From the NCBI GenBank assembly GCA_049513915.1, contig JBEKVN010000001.1, positions 158,283 to 222,282 on the forward strand: a stretch of DNA of 64,000 nt, in the 5' to 3' direction. The position numbers and the translations under genes were made by a program. The stretch comes from Candidatus Aminicenantales bacterium. Lineage in GTDB: Bacteria; Acidobacteriota; Aminicenantia; Aminicenantales; Saccharicenantaceae. Positions 2,284 through 63,726 of the stretch are shown here, in pieces; position 1 is the stretch's first letter; each line of letters opens with the position of its first letter. The notes under the pieces are model-generated. The model was not told the DNA's origin. It did not search any database and saw only the letters and a list, made by a program, of their open reading frames with translations.

Positions 2284-3339
2284 CTAGTGCGACCGAGATT
2301 CCCGACAGCTCTCAAAATAACTTCGCAGGCCTTCCGACGTCGTCACGCCGGGCTTCCAACCCACCATGTCCTTGATCTTGCGGTTGCTGTAATACGTTTT
2401 CTTCCAGGTCGCCGCCCATTCCCGGCGCGTGTAGACCGGCGGCAGCTGCCCGTGCGACCATTCCGAGTATTTTTCCCACAGGTAGCAAAAAAGGTAGCTG
2501 AAGGCGTGGGGGACGTAGATGGATTTGAACGATTTCACGTTTTTCTTGTAGAGACGCAAATAGCGCCTGGATGATGGCAGGTCGTCGTCGACGACGTTAA
2601 AGACCTCGCCTTCGATTCCGGCCTTGAGTCCGGCGAGGACGATGGCGTCGGCACAATTATCCAAATGCGTGAACGGAATAGGGTTTGCCCCCCCGAAGTG
2701 AAGATAGAGGCCAAACGAGTCGATCCCCACTCTCCCGGGAATGAAGTCCTTTCCCGGGCCATAGACACTGCCCGGCCGCACGATCACGTACGGAATGGCG
2801 TGCTTCCGCCCATACTCGATGACGAGCTCATCCTGCTTCACTTTGCCATAGCAGTAAGCCTCGGCGCGCGATTCAGGGTGCTCCTCCACCGGGCACGTTT
2901 CATCCAGGAGTCTCCATTGTGGCTTCTTCCGGTTCGTGTATACAGCGAACGAGCTGATGTTCACGAAACGCCGCAGGCACATATTTTCGAAGGCCGCATC
3001 CAGGAGGTTCCGCGTCGTGACCACGGAATTGAGGAAAGCGTCCGAAAACGCCTTCGTGCCGGATCCCGCCGCCAAGTGGTAAATTAGGGGTACGTCTTTA
3101 ACGAACTTTGTACAGTCCTCCCGGGATAAAAGCGTGCCGGTGACGATCTCGGTGCGGCCGAGCCCGTTATGGCGATCGATTTCCTTTTTTAATCTAGCTA
3201 GGTTGCTTGTGGACCTCGTCAAGCAGCGAATTCTACGAAAGCCCTTGTCGAGCAGACTGCCAACGACCCGCGGTCCGAGAAAACCCGCGGCCCCCGTGAC
3301 CAGGATAGGGTCATCGGATGTTGCTATTCCAAAGTCCAT
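2284..3339 (-). CDS. NAD-dependent epimerase/dehydratase (extended SDR) acting on a nucleotide sugar
   Basis: Motif ILVTGAAGFLG (GxxGxxG) close to the internal Met MDFG. The track ORF extends to 3396, but the start at 3339 places the Rossmann motif near the N-terminus. A catalytic YxxxK-like region (YCYGK) is present. Confidence 0.75.
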   Translation of the reverse strand: MDFGIATSDDPILVTGAAGFLGPRVVGSLLDKGFRRIRCLTRSTSNLARLKKEIDRHNGLGRTEIVTGTLLSREDCTKFVKDVPLIYHLAAGSGTKAFSDAFLNSVVTTRNLLDAAFENMCLRRFVNISSFAVYTNRKKPQWRLLDETCPVEEHPESRAEAYCYGKVKQDELVIEYGRKHAIPYVIVRPGSVYGPGKDFIPGRVGIDSFGLYLHFGGANPIPFTHLDNCADAIVLAGLKAGIEGEVFNVVDDDLPSSRRYLRLYKKNVKSFKSIYVPHAFSYLFCYLWEKYSEWSHGQLPPVYTRREWAATWKKTYYSNRKIKDMVGWKPGVTTSEGLRSYFESCRESRSH

Positions 3340-3823
3340 TGTCACATCTAGTCTCCAAAAGAGGCTTATTATACCCATTTCCTCACCCCTCCTCAAGCCA
3401 GTGCAGTGCTCAGCATGCCGTGGTCGCTAGACCTATGCGACATTAGGAGGGGTTCTTGCCAGAATGCCAATCAGCGAATCGGATATATTGCTTCCAATCA
3501 TATCGGATTACCGATCATCTGAAGCTGCGGTTTGAGACGGAAAAGCCTCCGCCGTTCCATTTTTTCGAGCAGGTTGCGCTTGCGGCGGCCGAGGAGAACG
3601 TGGACTATTTTTGACCATCTCAGTATTATGGGATGGGTAAGTCTGTCGCCTTTCTGCAGGCGTGGGGGGTTCTTCGTATCTATTGACACCGCCATGCGGC
3701 CAGCCATACACTTCCGGGATGGATAGGCGGGGAGATTCATCGTCAGGAGCTGGAATCAAGCTGATGAAAGGATAGTTTATTCTTACATCAGCCAGAATAT
3801 AGGCCATAAAGCTTATTAAGGGA

Positions 3824-8864: not shown

Positions 8865-10385
8865 TCAATTCGTGCGACCGCCGGCGCGAATAATGTTCGT
8901 GGAGGAAACCGTAATAAATAGGACGATTGCCGATAGATACCCCGTGAAAGAATTAATTGAAGACTCACCCATGTTGTGAACCACCGACATGATAATATAG
9001 CAGATCCAAAGGGCTCCCCAATCGAAGTCATGGGAAAGTTCCCGATAAGCCTTCCTGCAGGAGGATAAGAAAAAAGACGAGACCAGCAAAATGCCGACGA
9101 TGCCAAGCCCTAAGAGCACGTCCAGATACCCATTGTGGGCTCCGGAGATTTGGAATAAGTCCTGTCTTCTAGGGGTCCAGAAGACTCCGAAGCCTCTTCC
9201 TACGAAGGGGCTCTTCATCACTGTTGGTACGAGAGAGGTCCATACTTGCGTCCTACCCGTTAGTGTCGCGTCCCGTCCCGCGGCGGAAGCGAAGAACCCC
9301 AACCTCGACCCACCGGTGAATATGGAAACAATTCCGAAAACAATGATGACGGTCACGAGTGTCGTTAATATGCCTCCCGATACCTGTATCTTGTTTCTCT
9401 TCGCTAGATGGAATCCGCCGTAAACCAGAAGCCCCGCACAAAGTGCATAGACAGATGTTGCGGAATAGAAGATACTACCCTGGGGTCCTCCCAATAGCCA
9501 AAAAGCAAGAGCCAAGAGCATTATTTCCGCGTAAGTCTGATACTTCCATCCAACAGGATTATTGCCCTGCCACCTCCTGATAAGCGACCAGATTAGGAAG
9601 GTTGCGGAAATAATACATAAGCAAGCGAGGCTGTTCTTATGGTTAGCAGCTCCTATCCACATCTCATCACCTGACCAGCGGTTATACAAGCGCCCGTATT
9701 CAGGGAAATATTTGATGAGAATCGGCGAAAAGGGAATAAGAATGTAAGTCGTCCTTTTTAGAATACTCTCCATCGCATGGCGGGGCGAAGGCTCCGAGAG
9801 GACGACGAAGGCCATTAAAATTGCCAATAATTCTTTGCCCCACCGTTTAATAGAAAGCAAGGGAAGGTCCGACCAGAGGGTGCTGATAAGCATGAAAATG
9901 ACCAGCGCCATCAACCAAGCGTTCTCTCTCATGGCGGCAGACCAGTTGAAATCTCTCCGGATGAGGATGACAATGCCCACCAGAATGAAAGCCGCCTGGA
10001 ACGCAAGGTCCAAATCGCCTCCCTGCTCGGGGTCGGAGCTCCAAACTCGAAACCATGCTGCTAAAGGCTTGCTGGCAGTAACAAGTATCCAGATTGTGGG
10101 AATCCAAAGTGTTCTACTTACGTCAGCGCTTTGTTTACGTTCGAGTCGAAGAAGGAAAAGAACGAACGCAATGCAAAGAACTAATGCGAGCGTTGGCGGC
10201 AAATATGTCTCCTCTTCACTTTTCCTCCCGTCAATATACCACTCCCAAGCCGGGTTTTTCAATGAGCGAAAAGGAATTGACGCTGGACAGGGAATGACAT
10301 AATTTATCTGAAGAGATGAACCTCCATGAAAATCCTTTTCTAGGTGGCCAACGCAGTATGGAATACTTGAGAAAATGAGATTCAA
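8865..10385 (-). CDS. O-antigen ligase/polymerase-like membrane protein (Wzy_C domain)
   Basis: More than 10 predicted TM helices and a periplasmic-loop motif SGAHNGYLDVLLGLGIVG typical of the Wzy_C/O-antigen ligase family. The true start is probably internal or non-ATG, because the ORF 5' end overlaps the divergent MBOAT gene. Confidence 0.55.
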   Translation of the reverse strand: MNLIFSSIPYCVGHLEKDFHGGSSLQINYVIPCPASIPFRSLKNPAWEWYIDGRKSEEETYLPPTLALVLCIAFVLFLLRLERKQSADVSRTLWIPTIWILVTASKPLAAWFRVWSSDPEQGGDLDLAFQAAFILVGIVILIRRDFNWSAAMRENAWLMALVIFMLISTLWSDLPLLSIKRWGKELLAILMAFVVLSEPSPRHAMESILKRTTYILIPFSPILIKYFPEYGRLYNRWSGDEMWIGAANHKNSLACLCIISATFLIWSLIRRWQGNNPVGWKYQTYAEIMLLALAFWLLGGPQGSIFYSATSVYALCAGLLVYGGFHLAKRNKIQVSGGILTTLVTVIIVFGIVSIFTGGSRLGFFASAAGRDATLTGRTQVWTSLVPTVMKSPFVGRGFGVFWTPRRQDLFQISGAHNGYLDVLLGLGIVGILLVSSFFLSSCRKAYRELSHDFDWGALWICYIIMSVVHNMGESSINSFTGYLSAIVLFITVSSTNIIRAGGRTN

Positions 10386-11820
10386 CTCCTTCTATTATCT
10401 GGGCTTCCTGACGATCGTCGTGCTCCTATATTATCTGGTCGGGTCCCGCTTTCGGTGGGCGTTGTTATTATTGGCCAGCTATTATTTCTATGCCTCCTGG
10501 AAACCGGAGTATCTCCTCCTCATCGCGGGGACCACGGTCATCAACTATTTTGTCGCCGTCCTCATGGCCCGCCGGGAGGAGAAGAGGAGAAGGCGCAAGT
10601 TCCTCCTGATATCGCTGGCTTCGGGCCTGGGGCTGCTGTTTGTTTTCAAGTATTTCAATTTCTTCTCCGCCTCCATCCAGGACATCCTGCGGGGAGCCGA
10701 TGTCTTTGTTAAAAGCCCACTTCTAAACATCATGATGCCCATCGGGATCTCTTTTTATACTCTCCAGACGATCGGCTACATCTTGGACGTTTATCATGGA
10801 AGAATTGAACCCGAACGTCATCTTGGGACGTTCGCCGTATACGTTTCTTTTTTCCCGATCGTCTTATCAGGCCCGATCGAGCGCTCGAAGCACCTCCTGC
10901 CGCAACTTCAACGTGAGAACAAAATGGCCTTTTCTTACGAGAATATTTCCAGGGGGGCGAAACTGATCATCCTGGGATTATTCTACAAGTTGGTGGTCGC
11001 CGACAGGGCGGCGATCTATGTGAACGCGGTTTTTGCCAACGCCGACAAGCACTCGGGCCTTACCTTTCTAGTCGCCACGATATTCTTCAGTTTTCAAATT
11101 TACAGCGACTTTGCCGGTTATTCATATGTCGCCATCGGGTCCGCCAAGCTTCTGGGCATCGATATCATGCAGAATTTCAACCGCCCCTTATTTGCCGCCT
11201 CCATCAAGGATTTCTGGCGCAGATGGCACATCTCGCTTTCCACCTGGCTCAGGGATTACGTCTTTCTCCCTCTGGCCTATTCCTTTTCGCGAATGCTGAA
11301 AAAAGAAAGATATCTGTCTATCCGGACGGACCGGATCATCTACTTCTGTGCCATTTTTGTCACTTTCTTCCTCTGCGGTCTCTGGCATGGTGCGAATTGG
11401 ACGTTTATCGTCTGGGGGTGCTTGCACGGCTTCTACCTGGCCGTTGAGAATATTCTGAAGCGGAAAACGAGGCCCCGGCTCTTGAACATTGGCCTCACCT
11501 ACATCCTTGTCTTGTTCACCTGGGTATTTTTCCGGGCGGCTTCGATCGGTGATGCCCTGGCCATTGTCGGCAAAATGTTTACGAAACCGGGTTCGCTTTA
11601 TATCCCCCAAGGTTCGGATATCGTCGCGCCAATTTATGCCGGGATGGCCATACTCATTTTGCTCGCGATGGAATTCAAGCAGGAATTTTTTCCAGCCCGG
11701 TTTTCCTTCTTTAATAACGAGCGGGAGCTCGTCCGCGTGTTTTCTTATGCGGCGATTATTGCCCTGATACTGAGTCTGGGAGTTTTTGATGGCGGGCAGT
11801 TCATCTATGCACAGTTCTGA
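10375..11820 (+). CDS. MBOAT-family membrane O-acyltransferase (AlgI/DltB-like)
   Basis: Classic MBOAT block FWRRWHISLSTWLRDYVF (with catalytic His) and a polytopic membrane topology. Confidence 0.85.
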   Translation: MRFNSFYYLGFLTIVVLLYYLVGSRFRWALLLLASYYFYASWKPEYLLLIAGTTVINYFVAVLMARREEKRRRRKFLLISLASGLGLLFVFKYFNFFSASIQDILRGADVFVKSPLLNIMMPIGISFYTLQTIGYILDVYHGRIEPERHLGTFAVYVSFFPIVLSGPIERSKHLLPQLQRENKMAFSYENISRGAKLIILGLFYKLVVADRAAIYVNAVFANADKHSGLTFLVATIFFSFQIYSDFAGYSYVAIGSAKLLGIDIMQNFNRPLFAASIKDFWRRWHISLSTWLRDYVFLPLAYSFSRMLKKERYLSIRTDRIIYFCAIFVTFFLCGLWHGANWTFIVWGCLHGFYLAVENILKRKTRPRLLNIGLTYILVLFTWVFFRAASIGDALAIVGKMFTKPGSLYIPQGSDIVAPIYAGMAILILLAMEFKQEFFPARFSFFNNERELVRVFSYAAIIALILSLGVFDGGQFIYAQF

Positions 11821-45992: not shown

Positions 45993-46013
45993 TAAACGAC
46001 GGGACGAACGGTC

Positions 46014-46973
46014 TTGATTATCGAGAGCTTTCGCGGCGATTTCGAACAGGCCGCTTCTTTGATCCAGCGCGCGTGGGCGGATAACGAAAAACAGCCGTTG
46101 CTCTACACGGCCGAATTCCTGGGCTCCTTGTTCGAGTATCCGGGCGCAGACCTTTCTCTCGCGCCGACCCTGTATGACGGGACGAAGCCGATAGCCTTCA
46201 CCGCGGGTTTTCCGCGCCGCTTGCGTTTCAAGGGCCGGGAATTGCGAATCGTCATCGGCTCATTCCTGAGCGTATCGAGCGAATTCAAAAAAAGGGGATA
46301 TGGCATTGTCCTTTGGAGTGAGCTCGTAAGGAGGGTGCAGGCCGCGGGCTTCGACGGCATGATGAACTACTGCGTCGAGGGAGAGCCGATGAACGGCATG
46401 ATCCTCGGTTGTTGCCGTCGGCTGAAGATGCCGGTCGAGCGCGTCTTTTCCATCCATTACCTTACCTGCTTACTTTGGCCGAAAGAACCCAACGCCGTGA
46501 AGAGAGAGCAGGGGGAGGGGGTCGTGGATACCTTTCTGGAATTGGCCGCTCCGATCGCGGACCGTGCGTCTCTATCTCGTATCTGGAGCAGGCCGGAAGC
46601 TGAGTGGCAGTGCTCTGGACGGCTTGGGGCCATCGTCGCCAGACGAGTCGTCGAGCGAAGCCAGGGGATCCTAACCGGCTACATCATGCAGGTCGCCGAC
46701 CCGAAGCGTACGAAGTGCCTTCTTATCGAGGACATCCTCTGGGGTAATTCGCAGCCGGAGGAACGATCGGAATTGGTCCTCCGGCTTAAGAACGAGGCCG
46801 CCGCGGCGGGGGCCAGGCTGGCCGTCGTCCCCGTCCTGGGTTATGGAGATATGGCCCCGTTCCTCTCAGCGGGTTTCCGTCCTTCACCTCGGATCGTGCA
46901 GGCGTATCTATCCGCCTGGTCTGGTCCGACAGACACGGGGACCCTTGACGCAATGTACCTGGACGTGTTTTGA
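46014..46973 (+). CDS. GNAT-family N-acyltransferase
   Basis: Acetyl-CoA-binding-like block FKKRGYGIVLWSELV. TTG start in track, so the 5' end is uncertain. Confidence 0.45.
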   Translation: MIIESFRGDFEQAASLIQRAWADNEKQPLLYTAEFLGSLFEYPGADLSLAPTLYDGTKPIAFTAGFPRRLRFKGRELRIVIGSFLSVSSEFKKRGYGIVLWSELVRRVQAAGFDGMMNYCVEGEPMNGMILGCCRRLKMPVERVFSIHYLTCLLWPKEPNAVKREQGEGVVDTFLELAAPIADRASLSRIWSRPEAEWQCSGRLGAIVARRVVERSQGILTGYIMQVADPKRTKCLLIEDILWGNSQPEERSELVLRLKNEAAAAGARLAVVPVLGYGDMAPFLSAGFRPSPRIVQAYLSAWSGPTDTGTLDAMYLDVF

Positions 46974-46995
46974 TGCGCAAGGTGGGCGACACAGC

Positions 46996-56606: not shown

Positions 56607-57188
56607 ATGGGTTTTTTCGTTCACGAAAGCTCTTACCTGGACGATGGCGTCATCATCGGAGAAGGTACAAAAATCTGGCATTTCTGCCATATTCAGAAGG
56701 GTGCTCAAGTAGGAAAAAACTGTACGCTCGGGCAGAACGTCAATGTCGGGAACAACGTCGTCATCGGGAATCACGTGAAGATCCAAAACAATGTCTCGGT
56801 CTACGAGGGCGTCACCCTCGAGGACTACGTCTTCTGCGGGCCATCCGTCGTTTTCACAAATATCATCAACCCGCGCAGCAAGTATCTCCAGTCCGGCGCG
56901 GAGTTCTACAAAAAAACGATCGTCCGCGAGGGGGCTACCCTCGGCGCCAACTGCACGGTCATGTGCGGGCACAATATCGGACGTTTCGCGTTCGTTGGAG
57001 CCGGAGCGGTCGTGACCAAGGATGTCCCGGATTTCGCGCTTGTCGTCGGATGTCCGGCGAAGGTCGCGGGGTGGGTCAGCGAAGCCGGAAAGCGCCTCGA
57101 GTTCAATAAGGACGGGCTGGCGTATTGTGAAAAATCGGGGGTGACGTATAGATTTGAAAAAGGCCACGTCGTGGAACTTAAGAAATAA
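56607..57188 (+). CDS. Hexapeptide-repeat N-acetyltransferase, WbpD-like (UDP-GlcNAc3NA N-acetyltransferase type)
   Basis: 193 aa LbH protein ([44 protein letters not shown]). It directly follows the WbpE/WbpB-like genes, as in wbp/wlb clusters. Confidence 0.7.
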
Positions 57189-57244
57189 GCTCTCCGCGCA
57201 TAGCTCGCCGGCCTGTTGATTCGTTCCCTCTTTTACGGTATAGC

Positions 57245-58375
57245 ATGGGCGACATGAGCCGCGAGTCGACGAGCGTCATGGTCCGGGAAGGCCGCGTGCT
57301 TTCGGTCGACCTTTTCCGCGGCGTCATCATGTTTCTCCTGATCGGCAAGGTGACCGGTTTGTACGACCTTCTCGCCGCGCCGGCCCTCGACGGGACGGTC
57401 GTCCACGCCCTGGGCCTCCAATTCCAGCACCACCCGTGGCACGGCCTGAGGCTGTGGGACCTCGGCCAGCCCTTTTTCATGTTCATCAGCGGTGTCGCTA
57501 TGGTCTTCTCCTACGAAAAGCGCTGGGAGCGGGGAGAGAGCTGGGGGACGATGCTGGGCCAGGCCCTGCGGCGGTCTTTCCTGCTGTTCGCGCTCGGCTG
57601 GGCGCTTTACCAGGTCGGTTCCGAGGCGGGCGGCTTCAAAGGCGCGTTTCTCTTCGACATCCTGCCCCAACTCGCTTTCGCCAGTCTCGTCGCTTTTCTT
57701 CTGATCAGGCGGCCGGCGCGGACGCAGATCGGCGTCGCCCTCGGCCTCGTCGTCCTGACGGAGCTCCTCTATCGCCTCTGGCCCGTCGCCGGCTTCGACC
57801 AGCCCTTTACGGCCGGTCATAACTTCGGCTCCTGGCTCGACACGGCCCTGTTCGGCGCGACCTCGGAGGAGTGTCTGGTCACCTTCAACATGGTGCCGGC
57901 GGCAGCATTTGCGATTCTTGGTGTTCTTGCCGCGGGTCTGCTCAAGAGCGGCCGATCGCAGAAGAAAAAGCTCATGAGCTTGGTTTGGACGGGCTTGGCG
58001 GGAGTCGCCCTGGGCCTCGCTCTCGATCCTCTGACGCCGGTCGTCAAGCGCCTCTGCACGAGCTCCTTCGTCATCCTGGGCGGGGGCCTGGCCTTCCTAT
58101 CTCTCGCCCTGGGGTATTGGCTGATCGACATCATGAAATTCCGGAAGCGGTCGGAGTTTTTCGTCATCGTGGGCATGAACCCGGTTTTCATCTACCTTTT
58201 CGCGCTCTCGGGCGGAGCGGATTGGCTCCACAGGATCGTCGCGCCGTTCTCCATGGCCTTCTCCGGATGGATGGGGGAGGGACCGGCCCGGATCCTGACG
58301 AGTTTGGCGGTCTGGGGCCTGTTGTGGGCCCTTACCTATTGGCTCTATCGGAGAAAGATCTTCATCAGGATCTAG
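57245..58375 (+). CDS. Polytopic membrane protein, DUF1624/HGSNAT-like putative transmembrane acyltransferase
   Basis: N-terminal RVLSVDLFRGVIMFLLI resembles the catalytic-domain start of heparan-alpha-glucosaminide N-acetyltransferase-like bacterial proteins. About 10 TM helices. Ends 11 nt before the exosortase gene. Confidence 0.45.
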   Translation: MGDMSRESTSVMVREGRVLSVDLFRGVIMFLLIGKVTGLYDLLAAPALDGTVVHALGLQFQHHPWHGLRLWDLGQPFFMFISGVAMVFSYEKRWERGESWGTMLGQALRRSFLLFALGWALYQVGSEAGGFKGAFLFDILPQLAFASLVAFLLIRRPARTQIGVALGLVVLTELLYRLWPVAGFDQPFTAGHNFGSWLDTALFGATSEECLVTFNMVPAAAFAILGVLAAGLLKSGRSQKKKLMSLVWTGLAGVALGLALDPLTPVVKRLCTSSFVILGGGLAFLSLALGYWLIDIMKFRKRSEFFVIVGMNPVFIYLFALSGGADWLHRIVAPFSMAFSGWMGEGPARILTSLAVWGLLWALTYWLYRRKIFIRI

Positions 58376-58386
58376 CGGATTCGTTC

Positions 58387-59277
58387 ATGAGGAAGAAGGA
58401 TTGGCTGTTCGCTTTATTGACAGCCGTGACGCTGGCGCTTGCCGTGCCGCCGCTTGTCGATCTGCTGCGGACAAGGTGGTTATCGGAGTACTACGGTCAT
58501 ATCTCTTTGATCCCGATCGTCAGCGCTTACCTAATGTTCCGGCGCAGAAGGGAGATATTCCGGGGGACGGCATCGGGCCATCCTTGGGGGATTCTGGCCG
58601 CGGCGGCGGGCGTCGGGCTGTATGTGGCCGGCAGGTTCCTCGGCGGGGGGTTCGACGTCCGGGCCTCGCTGACGACCCTCGGGGCGCTTCTCTTCTGGTG
58701 CGGCTCCTATCTCTTGCTTTACGGAAAGAACGGCAGCCGGCGGGCCTTCTTCCCGCTCGCCTTCCTTCTTTTCGCCGTACCCATCCCGGCCCCAATTATT
58801 GAGAAGATCATCGCCGTCCTTGTCGTCGGCTCGGCCTACATGACCCGCCTGTTGTTGGTGGGTTTGGGCGTGCCGTTCGTTCAGGAAGGGCCCGTATTCC
58901 GCCTCCCCGGCTTCGCTATCGAGATCGCCCAGGAATGCAGCGGGATCCGATCGAGCCTGGCCCTCCTCATCACCACAGTCCTGGCCGGGCAGATCTTTTT
59001 GAAGAAGTTTTGGAAGCAAGCCCTGTTGGCCCTGGCCGTATTCCCCGTGGCCTTGTTCAAGAATGCCATCCGGATCGTCACCCTTTATCTGCTGTCCTAT
59101 TTTGTGGACATGAGGATTATTAAAGGGGGGTTCCTGCACAGGTCAGGGGGCTTCATTTTCTTCGGCTTGGGACTAGTCGTGCTGGCTTCGATCCTCTGGC
59201 TTCTCAGGGAGGGGGAGGGCCGAAGATCCGGGGCAAAAATGGACCTGGGGGATTTTAAAGGCAAGAAAATAAATTAG
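58387..59277 (+). CDS. Exosortase (EpsH/Xrt family transpeptidase)
   Basis: Conserved N-terminal YYGHISLIPIVSAYLMFRRR, active-site Cys block IEIAQECSGIRSS, Arg block LFKNAIRIVT, and about 8 TM helices. ATG 58387 is in frame within the longer track ORF 57871..59277. Confidence 0.8.
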   Translation: MRKKDWLFALLTAVTLALAVPPLVDLLRTRWLSEYYGHISLIPIVSAYLMFRRRREIFRGTASGHPWGILAAAAGVGLYVAGRFLGGGFDVRASLTTLGALLFWCGSYLLLYGKNGSRRAFFPLAFLLFAVPIPAPIIEKIIAVLVVGSAYMTRLLLVGLGVPFVQEGPVFRLPGFAIEIAQECSGIRSSLALLITTVLAGQIFLKKFWKQALLALAVFPVALFKNAIRIVTLYLLSYFVDMRIIKGGFLHRSGGFIFFGLGLVVLASILWLLREGEGRRSGAKMDLGDFKGKKIN

Positions 59278-59321
59278 ATAGGTAGGAGGGGGTGATTTTT
59301 TCCCGTTTAGGCTATTTCTGA

Positions 59322-59350
59322 TTGACAACAAGGGCGGCTTGTGCGATATT
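59322..59350 (+). promoter_or_regulatory. Candidate strong sigma70 promoter (TTGACA-N17-GATATT) plus AAGGAGG Shine-Dalgarno for the PEP-CTERM mini-protein
   Basis: Perfect -35 at 59322-59327, 17-nt spacer, -10 GATATT at 59345-59350. SD AAGGAGG at 59381-59387, 6 nt before ATG 59394. Confidence 0.45.
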
Positions 59351-59393
59351 TGGCTAGCCAAGTTTTCTCTAATCGTGGAAAAGGAGGCTTTTG

Positions 59394-59648
59394 ATGAAAA
59401 GAGCCAAAATCGTCGTTCTCTCAGTGATTCTGCTATTCTTCGTCCTGTCGACGGTGGCCAGCGCCGCGGGGATGTGGCCCGGCTGGTGGAAATCGAAAAC
59501 GGACCAGCATAGTGGCACGACCGGCACTGCCGGCGGCACAGGAAGCAGCGCCGTTTCCGTCCCCGAGCCTGCGATTATCGCCCTTCTCGGCGCCGGCCTG
59601 GTTTCCCTCGGTCTTTATGCCAAAAGGAAACGCGGCAAGAAGCAGTAA
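59394..59648 (+). CDS. Tiny PEP-CTERM sorting-domain protein (signal peptide + ~30-aa Trp/Gly/Thr-rich segment + PEP-CTERM anchor)
   Basis: MKRAKIVVLSVILLFFVLSTVASA (signal peptide), then AGMWPGWWKSKTDQHSGTTGTAGGTGSSAVS, then VPEP-AIIALLGAGLVSLGLYA-KRKRGKKQ (PEP motif, TM helix, basic tail). This is the canonical exosortase-target C-terminus. It lies directly downstream of the exosortase. Confidence 0.75.
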   Translation: MKRAKIVVLSVILLFFVLSTVASAAGMWPGWWKSKTDQHSGTTGTAGGTGSSAVSVPEPAIIALLGAGLVSLGLYAKRKRGKKQ

Positions 59649-59684
59649 TCGCCGGAAAATTCTTTCCTGACTTTTGAAATGACG

Positions 59685-59708
59685 GGAGGCCCCTAAGAAG
59701 GGGCTTCC
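59685..59708 (+). terminator. Possible hairpin terminator downstream of the PEP-CTERM gene
   Basis: GGAGGCCCCT-AAGA-AGGGGCTTCC forms a 10-bp stem (one G·U) with a 4-nt loop. There is no clear U-tract, so the call is weak. Confidence 0.25.
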
Positions 59709-59803
59709 GTGGTTGGCACGGCCTGCCCTGACCCCATATACCTTCTTGTCTCATTCCCTTATTTATGCTATCGTCCCGAGAAAGTGACAGAGGAGGGGTC
59801 TTC

Positions 59804-59923
59804 TTGATCATCGTAGGCGAACGCCTCAACTCCAGCCGGGAAGTCGTCCTCGAGGCGCTCCAAAAAAAGGACGCCGACTATCTCAGCTACATCCGGGAAC
59901 AGGCGAAAAAGTCGGGGGCGTAG
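59804..59923 (+). pseudogene. Truncated remnant (39 codons) of a methyltetrahydrofolate pterin-binding domain gene (MetH/MtrH-type)
   Basis: TTG start with GGAGG SD. The translation LIIVGERLNSSREVVLEALQKKDADYLSYIREQAKKSGA* matches the start of the pterin-binding domain (E. coli MetH: [38 protein letters not shown]). It then stops and abuts the convergent HMT/MTHFR gene. Confidence 0.4.
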
Positions 59924-59930
59924 GCCAGGC

Positions 59931-61754
59931 CTACAGGACTTGCAGGACCTCTAGCGCAAGGTCATATTTCCCCAGCGGCGGGCTTATCTGGACACCCTGA
60001 ACCATGCCCTTGATCCTGCCCAGAATGTCCCGGGCAATCTCCACACCTTCCCGCCGGGCGCTCTCGGGACTCTGATCCTGCGCGCGGCGCATCCGTTCCA
60101 TGATTTCGTCAGGGATCGAGGTGCCGGGCACCTCATTGTGCATGAATTCGGCGTTTCTTAGGCTCCACAGCGGCCAGATGCCCCCGAGAATGGGAACCCC
60201 GCACGATCCCGTCCTCTTGAGAAATTGCTCGAGAAGGCGGACGTCGAAAACCGGCTGGGTGATGGCGAATTCAGCCCCGGCTTCCACCTTCCGCTCAAAC
60301 CGGTGAATTTCGTTGTTGAGGTCTATAGCCCCTGGGTTGACGCCGACTCCAACTAAGAACGAGGTCGGCTTATCCATCTTTTTCCCGCCGATGTCGAAGC
60401 CGCGGTTGAGGCAGCTGACGAAGCCCGCGAGGCCGATCGAATCGACGTCAAAAACCGCTGTCGCATCCGGATAATCTCCGAGTTTGGGCGGATCGCCCGT
60501 GATGATTAAGATATTCTGGATATGTTGGGCCTGCAGGCCTAGAAAATCCGACTGTATCCCGAGGAGGTTCCGGTCGCGGCACGTGTAGTGCAGGATGATG
60601 TCCATCTTGGTGGTGGCCGTCAAAATGGAGGCAAGGGCCATGGGACTCATCCGGGCGCTGGCCCGGGGCCCATCGGGGATGTTTATCCCATCCACCCCGT
60701 GTTTCTCGAGTTTCCGGACGGCCTCGATCGCCGGGGACGGGTCATGCCCGCGGGGCGGCACGACTTCGACGCTGGTCACGAATTTTCTGTCCGCGAGTTT
60801 TTTCCCGAGGGCGGACTTCTCTCGGATCGGAATTTGCGGCGCGCCCCGGGCCTCGGCAAGATGTCTAGCGGCCGGCATCACCCGCCTGGGCGGTTGCAGC
60901 GCTTTTATCGCGGATCTCATGGCCTTGATGTGGGCCGGAGTCGTGCCGCAGCATCCGCCGACGATCCTTACGCCGGTCATGATAAACCGTTTGGCGTATT
61001 CAGCCATGTAGTCGGGCGAACAGAGATAAAGGTTTCGCCCGTCGACTTCCCGGGGCATGCCGGCGTTGGGCATGGCCGATAGGGGAAGGGCGGTGATTTT
61101 CATCATCCGCTCGATGCATTGGAGCATGAGGGCGGGCCCGACGCTGCAGTTGACCCCAATAACCTGAACGTCCAGGCTTTCGAGCTCTTTGGTAAAAACT
61201 TCCGGAGTCGTGCCGTATAAGCTGTTGCCGTCTTCTCCGATGGTCATCTCGGCGATCACAGGGATATCCGGGGCGGCCTCCCGGATTCCCCGGACGGCGT
61301 GCTCGATTTCATGGACGGCCGCGAACGTTTCCAAAATGAAAACGTCCACTCCGCCTTCCTGAAGGGACCGGGCTTGCTCGGCGAACGCGTCTTCGGCCTC
61401 TTCGGCCGCGAGTTGCCCCCAGGGCTCGACCTTGACCCCAAGGGGGCCTATTGAGCCGGCCAGAAATACGTCGGGGCCGGCTTCCTCGCGCGCGATCCGG
61501 GCGCCGGCACGATTGATTTCGGCGACCTTGTCGTTGAGTCCGTACTTCTTGAGCTTGAAACGGTTCGCCCCGAACGTATTGGTCTCGATGATGTCCGCTC
61601 CGCTCCGGACATATTCGCGGTGGATCTCTTGAACAATACTGGCATTGGTCAGGTTGAGCTCGTCAAAACACGTATTCAGGTAGATCCCCTTGCTGTAGAG
61701 CATGGTTCCCATGCCGCCGTCGCCAAGAAGGATCCTCTCCGCAAGCGCGTCCAA
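59931..61754 (-). CDS. Bifunctional homocysteine S-methyltransferase / 5,10-methylenetetrahydrofolate reductase
   Basis: N-terminal LLGDGGMGTML...ETNTF (HMT domain with Zn-binding GGCCGTTP later) and a C-terminal MTHFR-like TIM-barrel half. Confidence 0.8.
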   Translation of the reverse strand: MDALAERILLGDGGMGTMLYSKGIYLNTCFDELNLTNASIVQEIHREYVRSGADIIETNTFGANRFKLKKYGLNDKVAEINRAGARIAREEAGPDVFLAGSIGPLGVKVEPWGQLAAEEAEDAFAEQARSLQEGGVDVFILETFAAVHEIEHAVRGIREAAPDIPVIAEMTIGEDGNSLYGTTPEVFTKELESLDVQVIGVNCSVGPALMLQCIERMMKITALPLSAMPNAGMPREVDGRNLYLCSPDYMAEYAKRFIMTGVRIVGGCCGTTPAHIKAMRSAIKALQPPRRVMPAARHLAEARGAPQIPIREKSALGKKLADRKFVTSVEVVPPRGHDPSPAIEAVRKLEKHGVDGINIPDGPRASARMSPMALASILTATTKMDIILHYTCRDRNLLGIQSDFLGLQAQHIQNILIITGDPPKLGDYPDATAVFDVDSIGLAGFVSCLNRGFDIGGKKMDKPTSFLVGVGVNPGAIDLNNEIHRFERKVEAGAEFAITQPVFDVRLLEQFLKRTGSCGVPILGGIWPLWSLRNAEFMHNEVPGTSIPDEIMERMRRAQDQSPESARREGVEIARDILGRIKGMVQGVQISPPLGKYDLALEVLQVL

Positions 61755-61911
61755 AAATGGATTTTTGATGTGTCGGCCCCCGCTTTCAGCGTGTTTTCGT
61801 TACAGAGCGATTATAAGGAGCGGTCTCGCGAAAAGTCAAACGACTGCGAAAAACCGTTCCGTGCGGGTCTTGATTCTTCTTTCCCTTTTGGGGTAATCAT
61901 AGAGGAGCGCC

Positions 61912-62586
61912 ATGGAAACGATCGACCGCATCCCTGTCACGCTCGACCCCGCCGCCGTCGCCAAACGCCTGAGGCACAACCCGGCACGCGCCTCTTCCGT
62001 AAACCTCGACGAGCTCCTCGCCCTGGCCGGCTCGCTCATTCGCCTGCGCGCCGTCTACGAGGTCTCCTATACGGGCGCGAAAGGGGAGGACACAGTCGAA
62101 GTGGCCGGCGTCACATTCCGCAGCCGCATCCTTCGCCGCAACCTCGACCAGGCCCAGAAGGTCTTCCCGTTCATCATGACCGCGGGGCCCGCGCTAGAGG
62201 CCGCCGCGACTTCCTCGGGCGACCTGCTCAAGCAGTATTACCTCGAGGAAATGGCCAATATCGCCCTCGAGAACGGCGCCGCGTGGCTCGCCGAACGCCT
62301 CAAAACGCGCTATGGACTTCCAGGGCTCGCCAGCATGGACCCCGGCTCGCTCGAGGATTGGCCGATCACCGAGCAGCCGAAGCTTTTCTCGATCTTAGGC
62401 GACACGGAACGGCTCGTCGGCGTGCGCCTCACGGACAGCATGCTCATGATCCCGCGGAAGTCCATTTCGGGCATTTTCTTTCCGTCGGAGGAGGGGTTCT
62501 CGTCCTGCCAGCTCTGCGACCGGGATGCCTGCCCGGCCCGGCGCGGCCCATACGATGAAGTTATGGCCATTAATTACAAAGCGTAA
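61912..62586 (+). CDS. Stand-alone vitamin-B12-dependent methionine synthase activation (AdoMet-binding) domain-like protein
   Basis: 224-aa soluble protein with the composition and length of the MetH reactivation domain. It sits next to the HMT/MTHFR gene, as in split-MetH organisms. Confidence 0.45.
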   Translation: METIDRIPVTLDPAAVAKRLRHNPARASSVNLDELLALAGSLIRLRAVYEVSYTGAKGEDTVEVAGVTFRSRILRRNLDQAQKVFPFIMTAGPALEAAATSSGDLLKQYYLEEMANIALENGAAWLAERLKTRYGLPGLASMDPGSLEDWPITEQPKLFSILGDTERLVGVRLTDSMLMIPRKSISGIFFPSEEGFSSCQLCDRDACPARRGPYDEVMAINYKA

Positions 62587-62600
62587 TAATAAATGGGTAA

Positions 62601-62685
62601 TAAATGGGGACGGTCCTGTTTTCCCGATCGGTCCCAACGGGTCGAGTTATGATTCTTCAGAAAGAAACCAGGACCGTCCCTATTT
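62601..62685. repeat. Hairpin element copy 1: 12-20-bp inverted repeat (AAATGGGGACGGTCCTG...CAGGACCGTCCCTATTT) around a ~48-nt loop, followed by a T-run
   Basis: GGGACGGTCCTG at 62607-62618 pairs perfectly with CAGGACCGTCCC at 62669-62680. The same arm sequence recurs at 63635/63706. Located between the MetH-activation gene stop and the peptidase gene. Confidence 0.6.
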
Positions 62686-62698
62686 TTGAGGAGGCGCC

Positions 62699-63625
62699 AT
62701 GAAAAAAGCCCTATTTGCCCTGTTCATTCTCGCGGCCCTCGCCGCACTGATCATTCCCTTCCTTCCCGCCAATCTCCCGGCCCAGCAACGTGATGCCCAG
62801 AAGCTCAAAGTCTTCATTTCGGCCGACATGGAAGGGATCACGGGTGTTGTCGCCTCCGAACAAACGACCCCCGGCAACCCTGAATACGCCGCCGCCAGGA
62901 AATGGATGGCCGAGGACGTCAACGCCGCGGTTGAGGGCGCCCTCCGCGCCGGCGCGACCGAGGTCGTCGTCAACGATTCCCACGGCAGCCAGCGCAACAT
63001 CGACCCCGGCGACATCCACCCCAAGGCCATCCTCATCTCGGGCTACCCCAAGCCGCTTTCGATGATGCAGGGGATCGACGAATCCTATAACGCCGTCCTC
63101 TTCATCGGCTACCACGCTGGCGCCGGCACCCAGGACGCGGTCCTCGACCATACGATCTCGGGGAGCGTCGTCCAGAGTGTCAAAGTCAACGGGATGGAAC
63201 TGCCCGAGCTCGGGCTCAACGCGGCCATCGCCGGCGCCTACAACGTGCCCGTCGTCTTCATCAGCGGCGACGTGGCCGTCTGCCGCCAGGCGAAGACGAT
63301 CCTGGGCGGTGACGTCGTCACGGCGCCCGTCAAGGACGGTATCGGGCGCACGGCCGCCCGCCTCGTCCCCTTCGCCGAGGCCCGCCGCGGCATCCGCGAC
63401 CGGGTGACCGATGCCCTCCGCAAACTGGGCCAGGTTAAGCCCTTCAAGATCGCGGCGCCCTGCCGGTTCGAGCTCATGTTCTACATCTCGGCCCAGGCGG
63501 ACATGGCCATGTATTTTCCGAACGTCCAGAGGGTGAACTCGCGGACCGTGGCCTTCACGTCCGATGATTATCTCAAGGGATTCAAGACGCTCCGGGGGAT
63601 GATCGCCATCGCGCCCGGGCGGTGA
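62699..63625 (+). CDS. Peptidase family M55 (D-aminopeptidase DppA-like) with N-terminal signal/TM segment
   Basis: KVFISADMEGITGVV matches the DppA N-terminal motif. Hydrophobic leader ALFALFILAALAALIIPFL. Confidence 0.7.
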   Translation: MKKALFALFILAALAALIIPFLPANLPAQQRDAQKLKVFISADMEGITGVVASEQTTPGNPEYAAARKWMAEDVNAAVEGALRAGATEVVVNDSHGSQRNIDPGDIHPKAILISGYPKPLSMMQGIDESYNAVLFIGYHAGAGTQDAVLDHTISGSVVQSVKVNGMELPELGLNAAIAGAYNVPVVFISGDVAVCRQAKTILGGDVVTAPVKDGIGRTAARLVPFAEARRGIRDRVTDALRKLGQVKPFKIAAPCRFELMFYISAQADMAMYFPNVQRVNSRTVAFTSDDYLKGFKTLRGMIAIAPGR

Positions 63626-63634
63626 CGGCTAACT

Positions 63635-63726
63635 AAATGGGGACGGTCCTGGTTTTCCTTGGCTAATGGCCGGAAGGAGAGGATCTGGGGAAATCCGTAC
63701 GGCGAAACCAGGACCGTCCCCATTTA
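63635..63726. repeat. Hairpin element copy 2: perfect 21-bp inverted repeat (AAATGGGGACGGTCCTGGTTT / AAACCAGGACCGTCCCCATTT) around a 49-nt loop
   Basis: Arms at 63635-63655 and 63706-63726 are exact reverse complements. The arm sequence is shared with copy 1 and the loop differs. Located between the convergent peptidase and ABC permease genes. Confidence 0.65.

Follow-up and report, generated by a model that had tools for sequence, protein, structure and literature searches.

The locus and the genomes compared

The stretch analysed here, the window, comprises 64,000 nt of a Candidatus Aminicenantales genome (assembly GCA_049513915.1, contig JBEKVN010000001.1, positions 158,283 to 222,282). 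Near its right-hand end, a polysaccharide cassette that closes with an exosortase gene and a PEP-CTERM gene is followed by a 39-codon open reading frame (ORF; 59804–59923, + strand), by a convergent gene for a fused homocysteine S-methyltransferase/methylenetetrahydrofolate reductase (HMT/MTHFR; 59931–61754, − strand) and by a stand-alone gene whose product resembles the activation domain of methionine synthase (MetH; 61912–62586, + strand). The short ORF (LIIVGERLNSSREVVLEALQKKDADYLSYIREQAKKSGA, then a stop) starts with TTG at 59804–59806, ends with TAG at 59921–59923, begins 155 nt after the end of the PEP-CTERM gene and is preceded by the Shine–Dalgarno (SD) sequence GAGGAGGGG at 59790–59798. 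In these respects (the SD and TTG start, the convergent fusion 7 nt away, the activation-domain gene beyond it) the locus is as the original prediction had described it. That prediction had gone on to read the ORF as the first ∼ 40 residues of a MetH-type pterin-binding domain, truncated by a polysaccharide island. We find it very probable that the ORF is a pseudogene of a 267-codon pterin-binding methyltransferase gene (here the pterin gene), formed by a 684-bp internal deletion between two copies of TATCT(C).

The ORF was compared with relatives labelled L002–L096. Eighty loci encoding relatives of the HMT/MTHFR protein were retrieved, of which roughly the first half are metagenome-assembled genomes (MAGs) of Candidatus Aminicenantes and the remainder mainly other Acidobacteriota, chiefly Pyrinomonadaceae. 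Further relatives (L083–L088) were recovered via the pterin-binding protein, and the related loci number ∼ 95 in total. L083 is from Logan (SRR12951266), and four of L084–L088 belong to the same ENA assembly series (ERZ2725xxxx) as the window's sample. L095 (NCBI GCA_054327775.1) is the closest relative found, with 90–93% DNA identity to the window; L093 is the Logan assembly of run SRR7028477.

Anatomy of the short ORF

When searched by tblastn against L002, a relative with 91% identity, the peptide splits in two: residues 1–27 (E = 4e-11) and the last 12–14 residues match opposite ends of a 267-codon gene that adjoins HMT/MTHFR in convergent orientation. The alignment of window and L002 DNA contains a single clean gap of 684 nt (228 codons), in frame. 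The 5′ part of the ORF (59804–59884, + strand; codons 1–27, LIIVGERLNSSREVVLEALQKKDADYL) is identical to L095 at 74 of 81 nt, with two amino-acid differences. The 3′ part (59885–59923, + strand) consists of the final 12 codons of the ancestral gene (SYIREQAKKSGA) and its native TAG stop; it shares 38 of 39 nt with the 3′ terminus of the L095 gene and is collinear with homology that runs on downstream into HMT/MTHFR. The proposal that the peptide represents the first ∼ 40 residues of the domain thus holds for residues 1–27, whereas residues 28–39 are the C-terminus of the protein, and their earlier alignment to domain positions 28–39 is a coincidence of composition.

The sequences on either side of the ORF are also those of the intact gene. 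A conserved upstream block (59744–59803, + strand) aligns with the regions upstream of the intact genes of L002, L083, L089 and L095, the homology to L002 and L083 beginning at 59742/59744, and blastn of 59465–59883 against L095 gives 90% identity (E = 3.5e-164). Within this block, TTGTCT (59746–59751) and, after a 17-nt spacer, TG-n-TATCGT (59766–59774) may form a promoter; at 8/12 to the consensus this candidate falls under the scan threshold. On the other side, the 7 nt between the convergent stops (59924–59930) had been taken for a scar of truncation but are native spacing, since the gap is equally long in L083 (8659–8665) and L095 (1144–1150). Both ends of the ORF, together with the upstream block and the spacer that follows, align collinearly with the intact genes of L002, L083 and L095 at 83–97% nucleotide identity. 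The window therefore keeps the upstream block from ∼ 59744, both ends of the coding sequence, the stop and the spacer.

At the junction (59879–59884, + strand) the window retains one TATCTC (encoding Tyr-Leu), a sequence that is repeated at codons 26–27 and 254–255 of the intact genes. Five intact relatives carry a direct repeat of 5–6 bp at both break points, the left and right copies reading TATCTC/TATCTC in L082, L083 and L087, TATCTT/TATCTC in L095 and TATCTC/TATCTA in L002. The two blastn segments that the window forms with L095 overlap by 5 nt at the junction. A repeat at both ends of the missing segment and a single copy where they meet is the pattern of a microhomology deletion.

The similarity to pterin-binding domains first proposed for the peptide is not recovered from its 39 residues alone, which match neither the Pterin_bind profile (PF00809) nor any PDB chain at E ≤ 10. 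By profile the ORF is thus not a member of PF00809 or NF005719; its descent from a member of that family is established by position and nucleotide homology. A single weak match of the peptide to DUF4116 (16 bits, under its cutoff) was dismissed.

The intact pterin-binding family

The intact genes of L002 and L003 match PF00809 from residue 5 with 68 and 79 bits (cutoff 25.5), and collinearity with these orthologues bears out the view that the ORF is what is left of a gene for a pterin-binding, corrinoid-type methyltransferase. The L002 protein also passes the NCBIfam model NF005719 (methyltetrahydrofolate:corrinoid/iron-sulfur protein methyltransferase; 275.8 bits versus a cutoff of 259). Family membership predicts that the intact protein is a stand-alone methyltetrahydrofolate (methyl-THF):corrinoid methyltransferase. 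The family has 854 members at E ≤ 1e-20, all of ∼ 263–280 aa.

Against PDB sequences, the L002 protein scores 172 bits with 4o0q, 163 with 2yci and 126 with 1f6y, versus ∼ 100 bits with MetH folate domains. By these scores the family is nearer to MeTr/AcsE-type and O-demethylase methyltransferases than to the folate domain of MetH, and the label 'MetH-type' was a loose one. Like MeTr/AcsE and the O-demethylase methyltransferase of Desulfitobacterium hafniense (4o0q, 2yci, 1f6y), the intact protein is a stand-alone Pterin_bind TIM barrel of ∼ 265 aa, and the intact orthologues begin with the (I/L)IGER(I/L)N motif of MeTr/AcsE-type proteins. The setting differs from that of MeTr/AcsE systems in that there is no acetyl-CoA-pathway or O-demethylase operon here and no corrinoid protein adjoins the pterin gene, which is paired with HMT/MTHFR instead; with the CODH/ACS subunit model NF040758 the intact protein scores 118 bits, far short of the 370 required, and the window retains only 39 of the 267 codons.

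Origin of the remnant

Bacterial pseudogenes can arise by deletion between short direct repeats, through slipped-strand or microhomology-mediated illegitimate recombination. The window fits this pattern in every respect (a clean loss between 5–6-bp repeats, one copy kept, flanks collinear) and contains nothing unusual beyond one detail: the deletion is in frame and keeps the native start and stop, so that the remnant mimics a small gene. We suggest that the ancestor carried a stand-alone 267-codon gene of the MeTr/AcsE type, convergent to HMT/MTHFR, whose product would have transferred the methyl group of methyl-THF to a corrinoid. In the window lineage one deletion of 684 bp between direct copies of TATCT(C) at codons 26–27 and 254–255 would then have removed codons 28–255, essentially the whole TIM barrel, and left a single copy of the repeat. 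Replication slippage or another form of microhomology-mediated illegitimate recombination is the likely cause. Because the two repeats share a reading frame, the native start and stop now delimit an open frame of 39 codons, which still follows the ancestral upstream region and SD. With codons 28–255 gone, the product should be unable to bind folate and the methyl-THF half-reaction encoded here would be lost.

The remnant is thus an ordinary pseudogene of a known kind, and probably a recent one. Its divergence from L095 is not above that of its neighbours (dS 0.21 versus 0.25 for HMT/MTHFR). The low divergence of the remnant and the intact state of its neighbours fit either a recent deletion or neighbours that are still useful without the pterin gene; the data cannot separate the two. 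For annotation, the ORF should be read as the two ends of a deleted gene joined together, which corrects the face-value reading made both by the gene caller and by the original prediction. For metabolic reconstruction, methyl-THF-dependent methionine synthesis should not be credited to this locus unless the genome contains a further copy; no second pterin-binding copy was found in the 64-kb window or in the 6 kb beyond it.

Several observations weigh against this account, or against the role that we assign to the lost gene. The gene is rich in direct 6-mer repeats (in L095, 165 pairs, of which 57% are in phase), and the microhomology is therefore suggestive of the mechanism rather than proof of it. 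The ancestral state of the left repeat, TATCTC or TATCTT, is reconstructed from relatives none of which is closer than ∼ 93% identity. Among species-level Aminicenantes loci, 38 have enough flanking sequence to judge, and the pterin gene adjoins HMT/MTHFR in just 14 of them (seven convergent, seven co-directional). No gene for a B12-binding protein was found in the window or in the ∼ 95 related loci, and for this reason a part for the pterin gene in a split MetH is something that we infer rather than observe. Finally, two scans of JGI metagenome contigs failed to recover the junction, and the evidence for it consists of assemblies; the two assemblies that contain it may share reads, in which case the allele could be a minority variant.

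This last point bears on the possibility that the deletion is an artefact of assembly or population structure, the dominant genome being intact and the contig representing either a chimeric join or a deleted variant of low frequency. The junction is known from one ENA contig (ERZ27250059:k141_221467, 203,652 bp, from which the window derives) and one Logan contig only, perhaps derived from the same reads, and look-ups aimed at a further contig of this strain yielded just these two. Sister samples from the ERZ2725xxxx series contain many intact alleles, but their identity of only ∼ 87% places them in other species or strains. The two contigs come from different assembly pipelines and are base-identical across the junction: a 502-nt stretch of L093 (SRR7028477) that spans it has 100% identity to the window. 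A 6-bp repeat, being much shorter than k = 141 or even k = 31, cannot collapse the assembly graph, and collinearity is perfect in both flanks. We consider an artefact improbable.

The original prediction had held that insertion of an exopolysaccharide (EPS)/exosortase island, or a deletion accompanying it, removed the 3′ 250 codons of the gene and left the ORF as its scar. The polysaccharide locus does indeed close, on its right, with a variable cassette of 8.2 kb (51524–59743, + strand). In L083–L088 the gene order is AMP-binding/PP-binding/Hexapep159, intact pterin gene, HMT/MTHFR, activation-like gene and M55 peptidase gene; by blastn the window is collinear with these loci on both sides and has the 8.2 kb in addition, between Hexapep159 and the upstream block of the pterin gene. 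The site is a recurrent break in synteny, with a different 3.6-kb cassette beside an intact pterin gene in L089 and yet other neighbours in L002 and L003. The right-hand limit of the variable polysaccharide locus therefore lies at ∼ 59743, 61 bp upstream of the start codon of the remnant, within the 59.7–59.9 kb proposed earlier.

The position of the edge thus stands, whereas the view of the remnant as its scar does not. The gene has kept its 3′ end, with the last 12 codons, the stop and the native 7-nt spacer, and both deletion ends are intragenic, the nearer one ∼ 135 bp from the edge of the cassette, where the 5′ end of the gene and its upstream region are intact. L095 has the same PEP-CTERM gene and the same intergenic region, followed by the intact 267-codon gene and then HMT/MTHFR, which makes the cassette older than the deletion and independent of it. 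The comparison with close relatives thus finds an intact gene at the same place both with this cassette (L095) and without it (L083–L088), as well as beside another one (L089). Presence and absence of the segment do vary among relatives, but the marks of a horizontally acquired island are lacking: the G+C fraction (0.53–0.62 inside the segment, 0.59–0.64 outside) has no step, and neither a tRNA gene nor flanking repeats were found for it. A truncation by the island is very improbable, and turnover of the cassette is independent of the loss of the gene.

That the 39 codons are a functional small gene, encoding a microprotein or regulatory leader, is scarcely credible: the upstream block and strong SD are intact, the frame is open and nonsynonymous changes are few (three, versus five synonymous), but eight substitutions are not enough to demonstrate selection, selection need not be invoked for the open frame because 57% of the 6-mer repeat pairs are in phase, a 42-aa query found no conserved short homologue or independent small gene, in relatives or otherwise, among 5.8 billion proteins, where its sole match was itself, and in the lineage of L008 the pterin gene has plainly decayed.

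Neighbouring genes and a possible split methionine synthase

The HMT/MTHFR gene is intact and encodes 607 aa from a TTG start. Its product matches PF02574 (E = 6.6e-73; residues 9–282) and PF02219 (E = 1.5e-33), and scores 745 bits with the NCBIfam equivalog NF006396 (cutoff 453). The motifs GVNCSVGP and GGCCGTTP are present in the translation, and a strong promoter-like site for the gene (TTGACT-18-TATAAT) is found at 61839–61810. We presume that this conserved neighbour was the functional partner of the lost gene. The two genes are adjacent in all closer relatives, and the adjacency links the pterin gene to an enzyme that makes methyl-THF and to a domain that methylates homocysteine.

The activation-like gene, divergent from HMT/MTHFR, encodes a TM0269-like protein of 224 aa. 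It scores 26.5 bits with PF02965 (cutoff 25) in a match that spans 42 residues, and its family has 894 members, nearly all with PF02965. A Foldseek search with the AlphaFold model, whose predicted local distance difference test (pLDDT) score is 61, returned MetH activation domains as all 11 best matches; no other structure fell below E = 1. TM0269 (1j6r), which ranked first, was matched at E = 3.5e-4 with this poor model, and the family profile found no match among PDB sequences. With modest confidence, the model and the profile match point to a protein of the activation-domain type. Both neighbours appear to be under strong purifying selection, with dN/dS values relative to L095 of 0.09 for HMT/MTHFR and 0.10 for the activation-like gene.

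The activation-like family also has an invariant C-terminal cysteine motif (CQLC-x4-C, residues 199–210, with C199, C202 and C207), which suggests a candidate metal or Fe-S site. To our knowledge, classical MetH activation domains have no such site.

The ancestral protein may have been one part of a split methionine synthase whose other parts were the HMT domain, the activation-like protein and a corrinoid carrier encoded at another locus. Of the components of such an enzyme, the homocysteine-binding part (PF02574) with its Zn-binding cysteine triad is encoded apart from the others, here fused to MTHFR; a separate PF00809 part is absent from the window and intact in relatives; and a PF02965 reactivation part is present as a marginal match (26.5 bits versus 25; model pLDDT 61). 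A regular expression for the B12-binding motif (DxHxxG...SxL...GG) found nothing in the window or in 89 related loci, no methyltransferase-type PF02310 protein occurs in the Pfam-annotated neighbourhoods, and on the far side of the pterin gene no recurrent partner was seen in the 14 loci inspected.

A three-part split MetH has been genetically proven in Phaeobacter inhibens (PGA1_c13370/PGA1_c16040/MtbC; Price et al., 2018, PMC5764234). Both systems place PF02574, PF00809 and reactivation functions on separate genes. They differ in that the PF02574 domain is fused to MTHFR here, the reactivation candidate of the window is PF02965-like and not RamA/DUF1638, no PF02607/PF02310 corrinoid protein was found near any member, and the pterin part is destroyed in the window; the system described here is known from genes alone, that of P. 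inhibens by genetics. Thermotoga maritima (TM0268 and TM0269, 1j6r) resembles the window in having a stand-alone activation-domain-like protein, TM0269 being the best structural match, but this likeness is weak (TM-score ∼ 0.4, model pLDDT 61), and TM0268 has the homocysteine, folate and B12 domains in one chain whereas in the window these are on separate genes or missing.

Loss of the pterin gene in other lineages

An independent wreck of the pterin gene is found in L008 (JADGNU010000256.1, 2146–3563), where residues 58–117 and ∼ 251–269 are left and the N-terminus is gone. It adjoins ORFs that resemble an IS91-family transposase (CKTRGFCPLCHAKR motif). In L096 (JGI 3300056618 Ga0566189_0000055, 9664–11601) both HMT/MTHFR and the pterin gene are absent. 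Its activation-like protein is 92% identical to that of the window, the activation-like, M55 peptidase and ABC transporter genes are syntenic, and EPS genes (asparagine synthase, UDP-glucose dehydrogenase, exosortase) abut the activation-like gene. No pterin gene lies within 6 kb in 21 of the 38 loci. This recurrent decay is a modest hint that the pterin module is dispensable in this clade.

We speculate that peatland Aminicenantes repeatedly discard the methyl-THF module of a multi-gene methionine synthase and that strong purifying selection maintains HMT/MTHFR and the activation-like protein. The cases that could be cited are the window (228 codons lost), L008 (IS91-type insertion and deletion), L096 and the 21 loci just mentioned; we regard the idea as doubtful. 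If it were true, the HMT domain would be fed by another methyl source, either a different corrinoid protein and methyltransferase or S-adenosylmethionine (SAM)/S-methylmethionine, and the pair of HMT/MTHFR and MeTr-like protein would be an optional modular add-on and not an obligate split MetH.

In L017 (CAYHHI010000001.1, 7867–10385), an Aminicenantes-like MAG, HMT/MTHFR is followed in order by a MeTr-like pterin gene, an hgcA-like gene (343 aa, NVWCAAGK cap-helix motif) and a gene for an hgcB-like ferredoxin (two CX2CX2CX3C motifs, C-terminal CC). A functional link between hgcAB and the pterin gene was considered and dropped, since the arrangement occurs in one of the 80 loci and SAM is reported to be the methyl donor of HgcAB in a 2024 PNAS paper (PMC11588087). 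The adjacency may be coincidental.

Other features of the region

The cassette contains, besides a gene for an 858-aa protein, genes for a DegT aminotransferase, a Gfo/Idh/MocA oxidoreductase, a hexapeptide transferase, a NagX-like membrane acetyltransferase, an exosortase (EpsH; TIGR02602, 130 bits versus a cutoff of 105.55) and the PEP-CTERM protein (PF07589; 84 or 85 aa, 59391/59394–59648, + strand). The 858-aa ORF at the left end of the cassette (51707–54283) has no Pfam or NCBIfam match. Identity to L083 is ∼ 75% over the shared polysaccharide genes (46012–51523) and ∼ 86% over the side with HMT/MTHFR, the activation-like gene and the M55 peptidase gene (59879–63482), which suggests that divergence or recombination is faster in the polysaccharide locus than in the housekeeping genes beside it.

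At the deletion junction, a minus-strand hairpin that resembles a terminator (59887–59873) was rejected as being at chance level (three found versus 4.5 expected), and an Rfam scan of the window detected neither riboswitches nor other RNAs. Between HMT/MTHFR and the activation-like gene, where the window has a divergent promoter region of 117 bp, L095 carries a GH16 glycoside hydrolase gene (3004–3801).

The M55 peptidase gene is bracketed by two copies of a hairpin element of ∼ 80–90 nt (62603–62684 and 63636–63724) with 20-nt terminal inverted repeats (AATGGGGACGGTCCTGGTTT; four arm matches versus none expected). The hairpins fold with −40 and −55 kcal/mol (z-scores −2.9 and −6.2) and have no Rfam match; they look like repetitive extragenic palindromes, miniature inverted-repeat transposable elements or bidirectional terminators.

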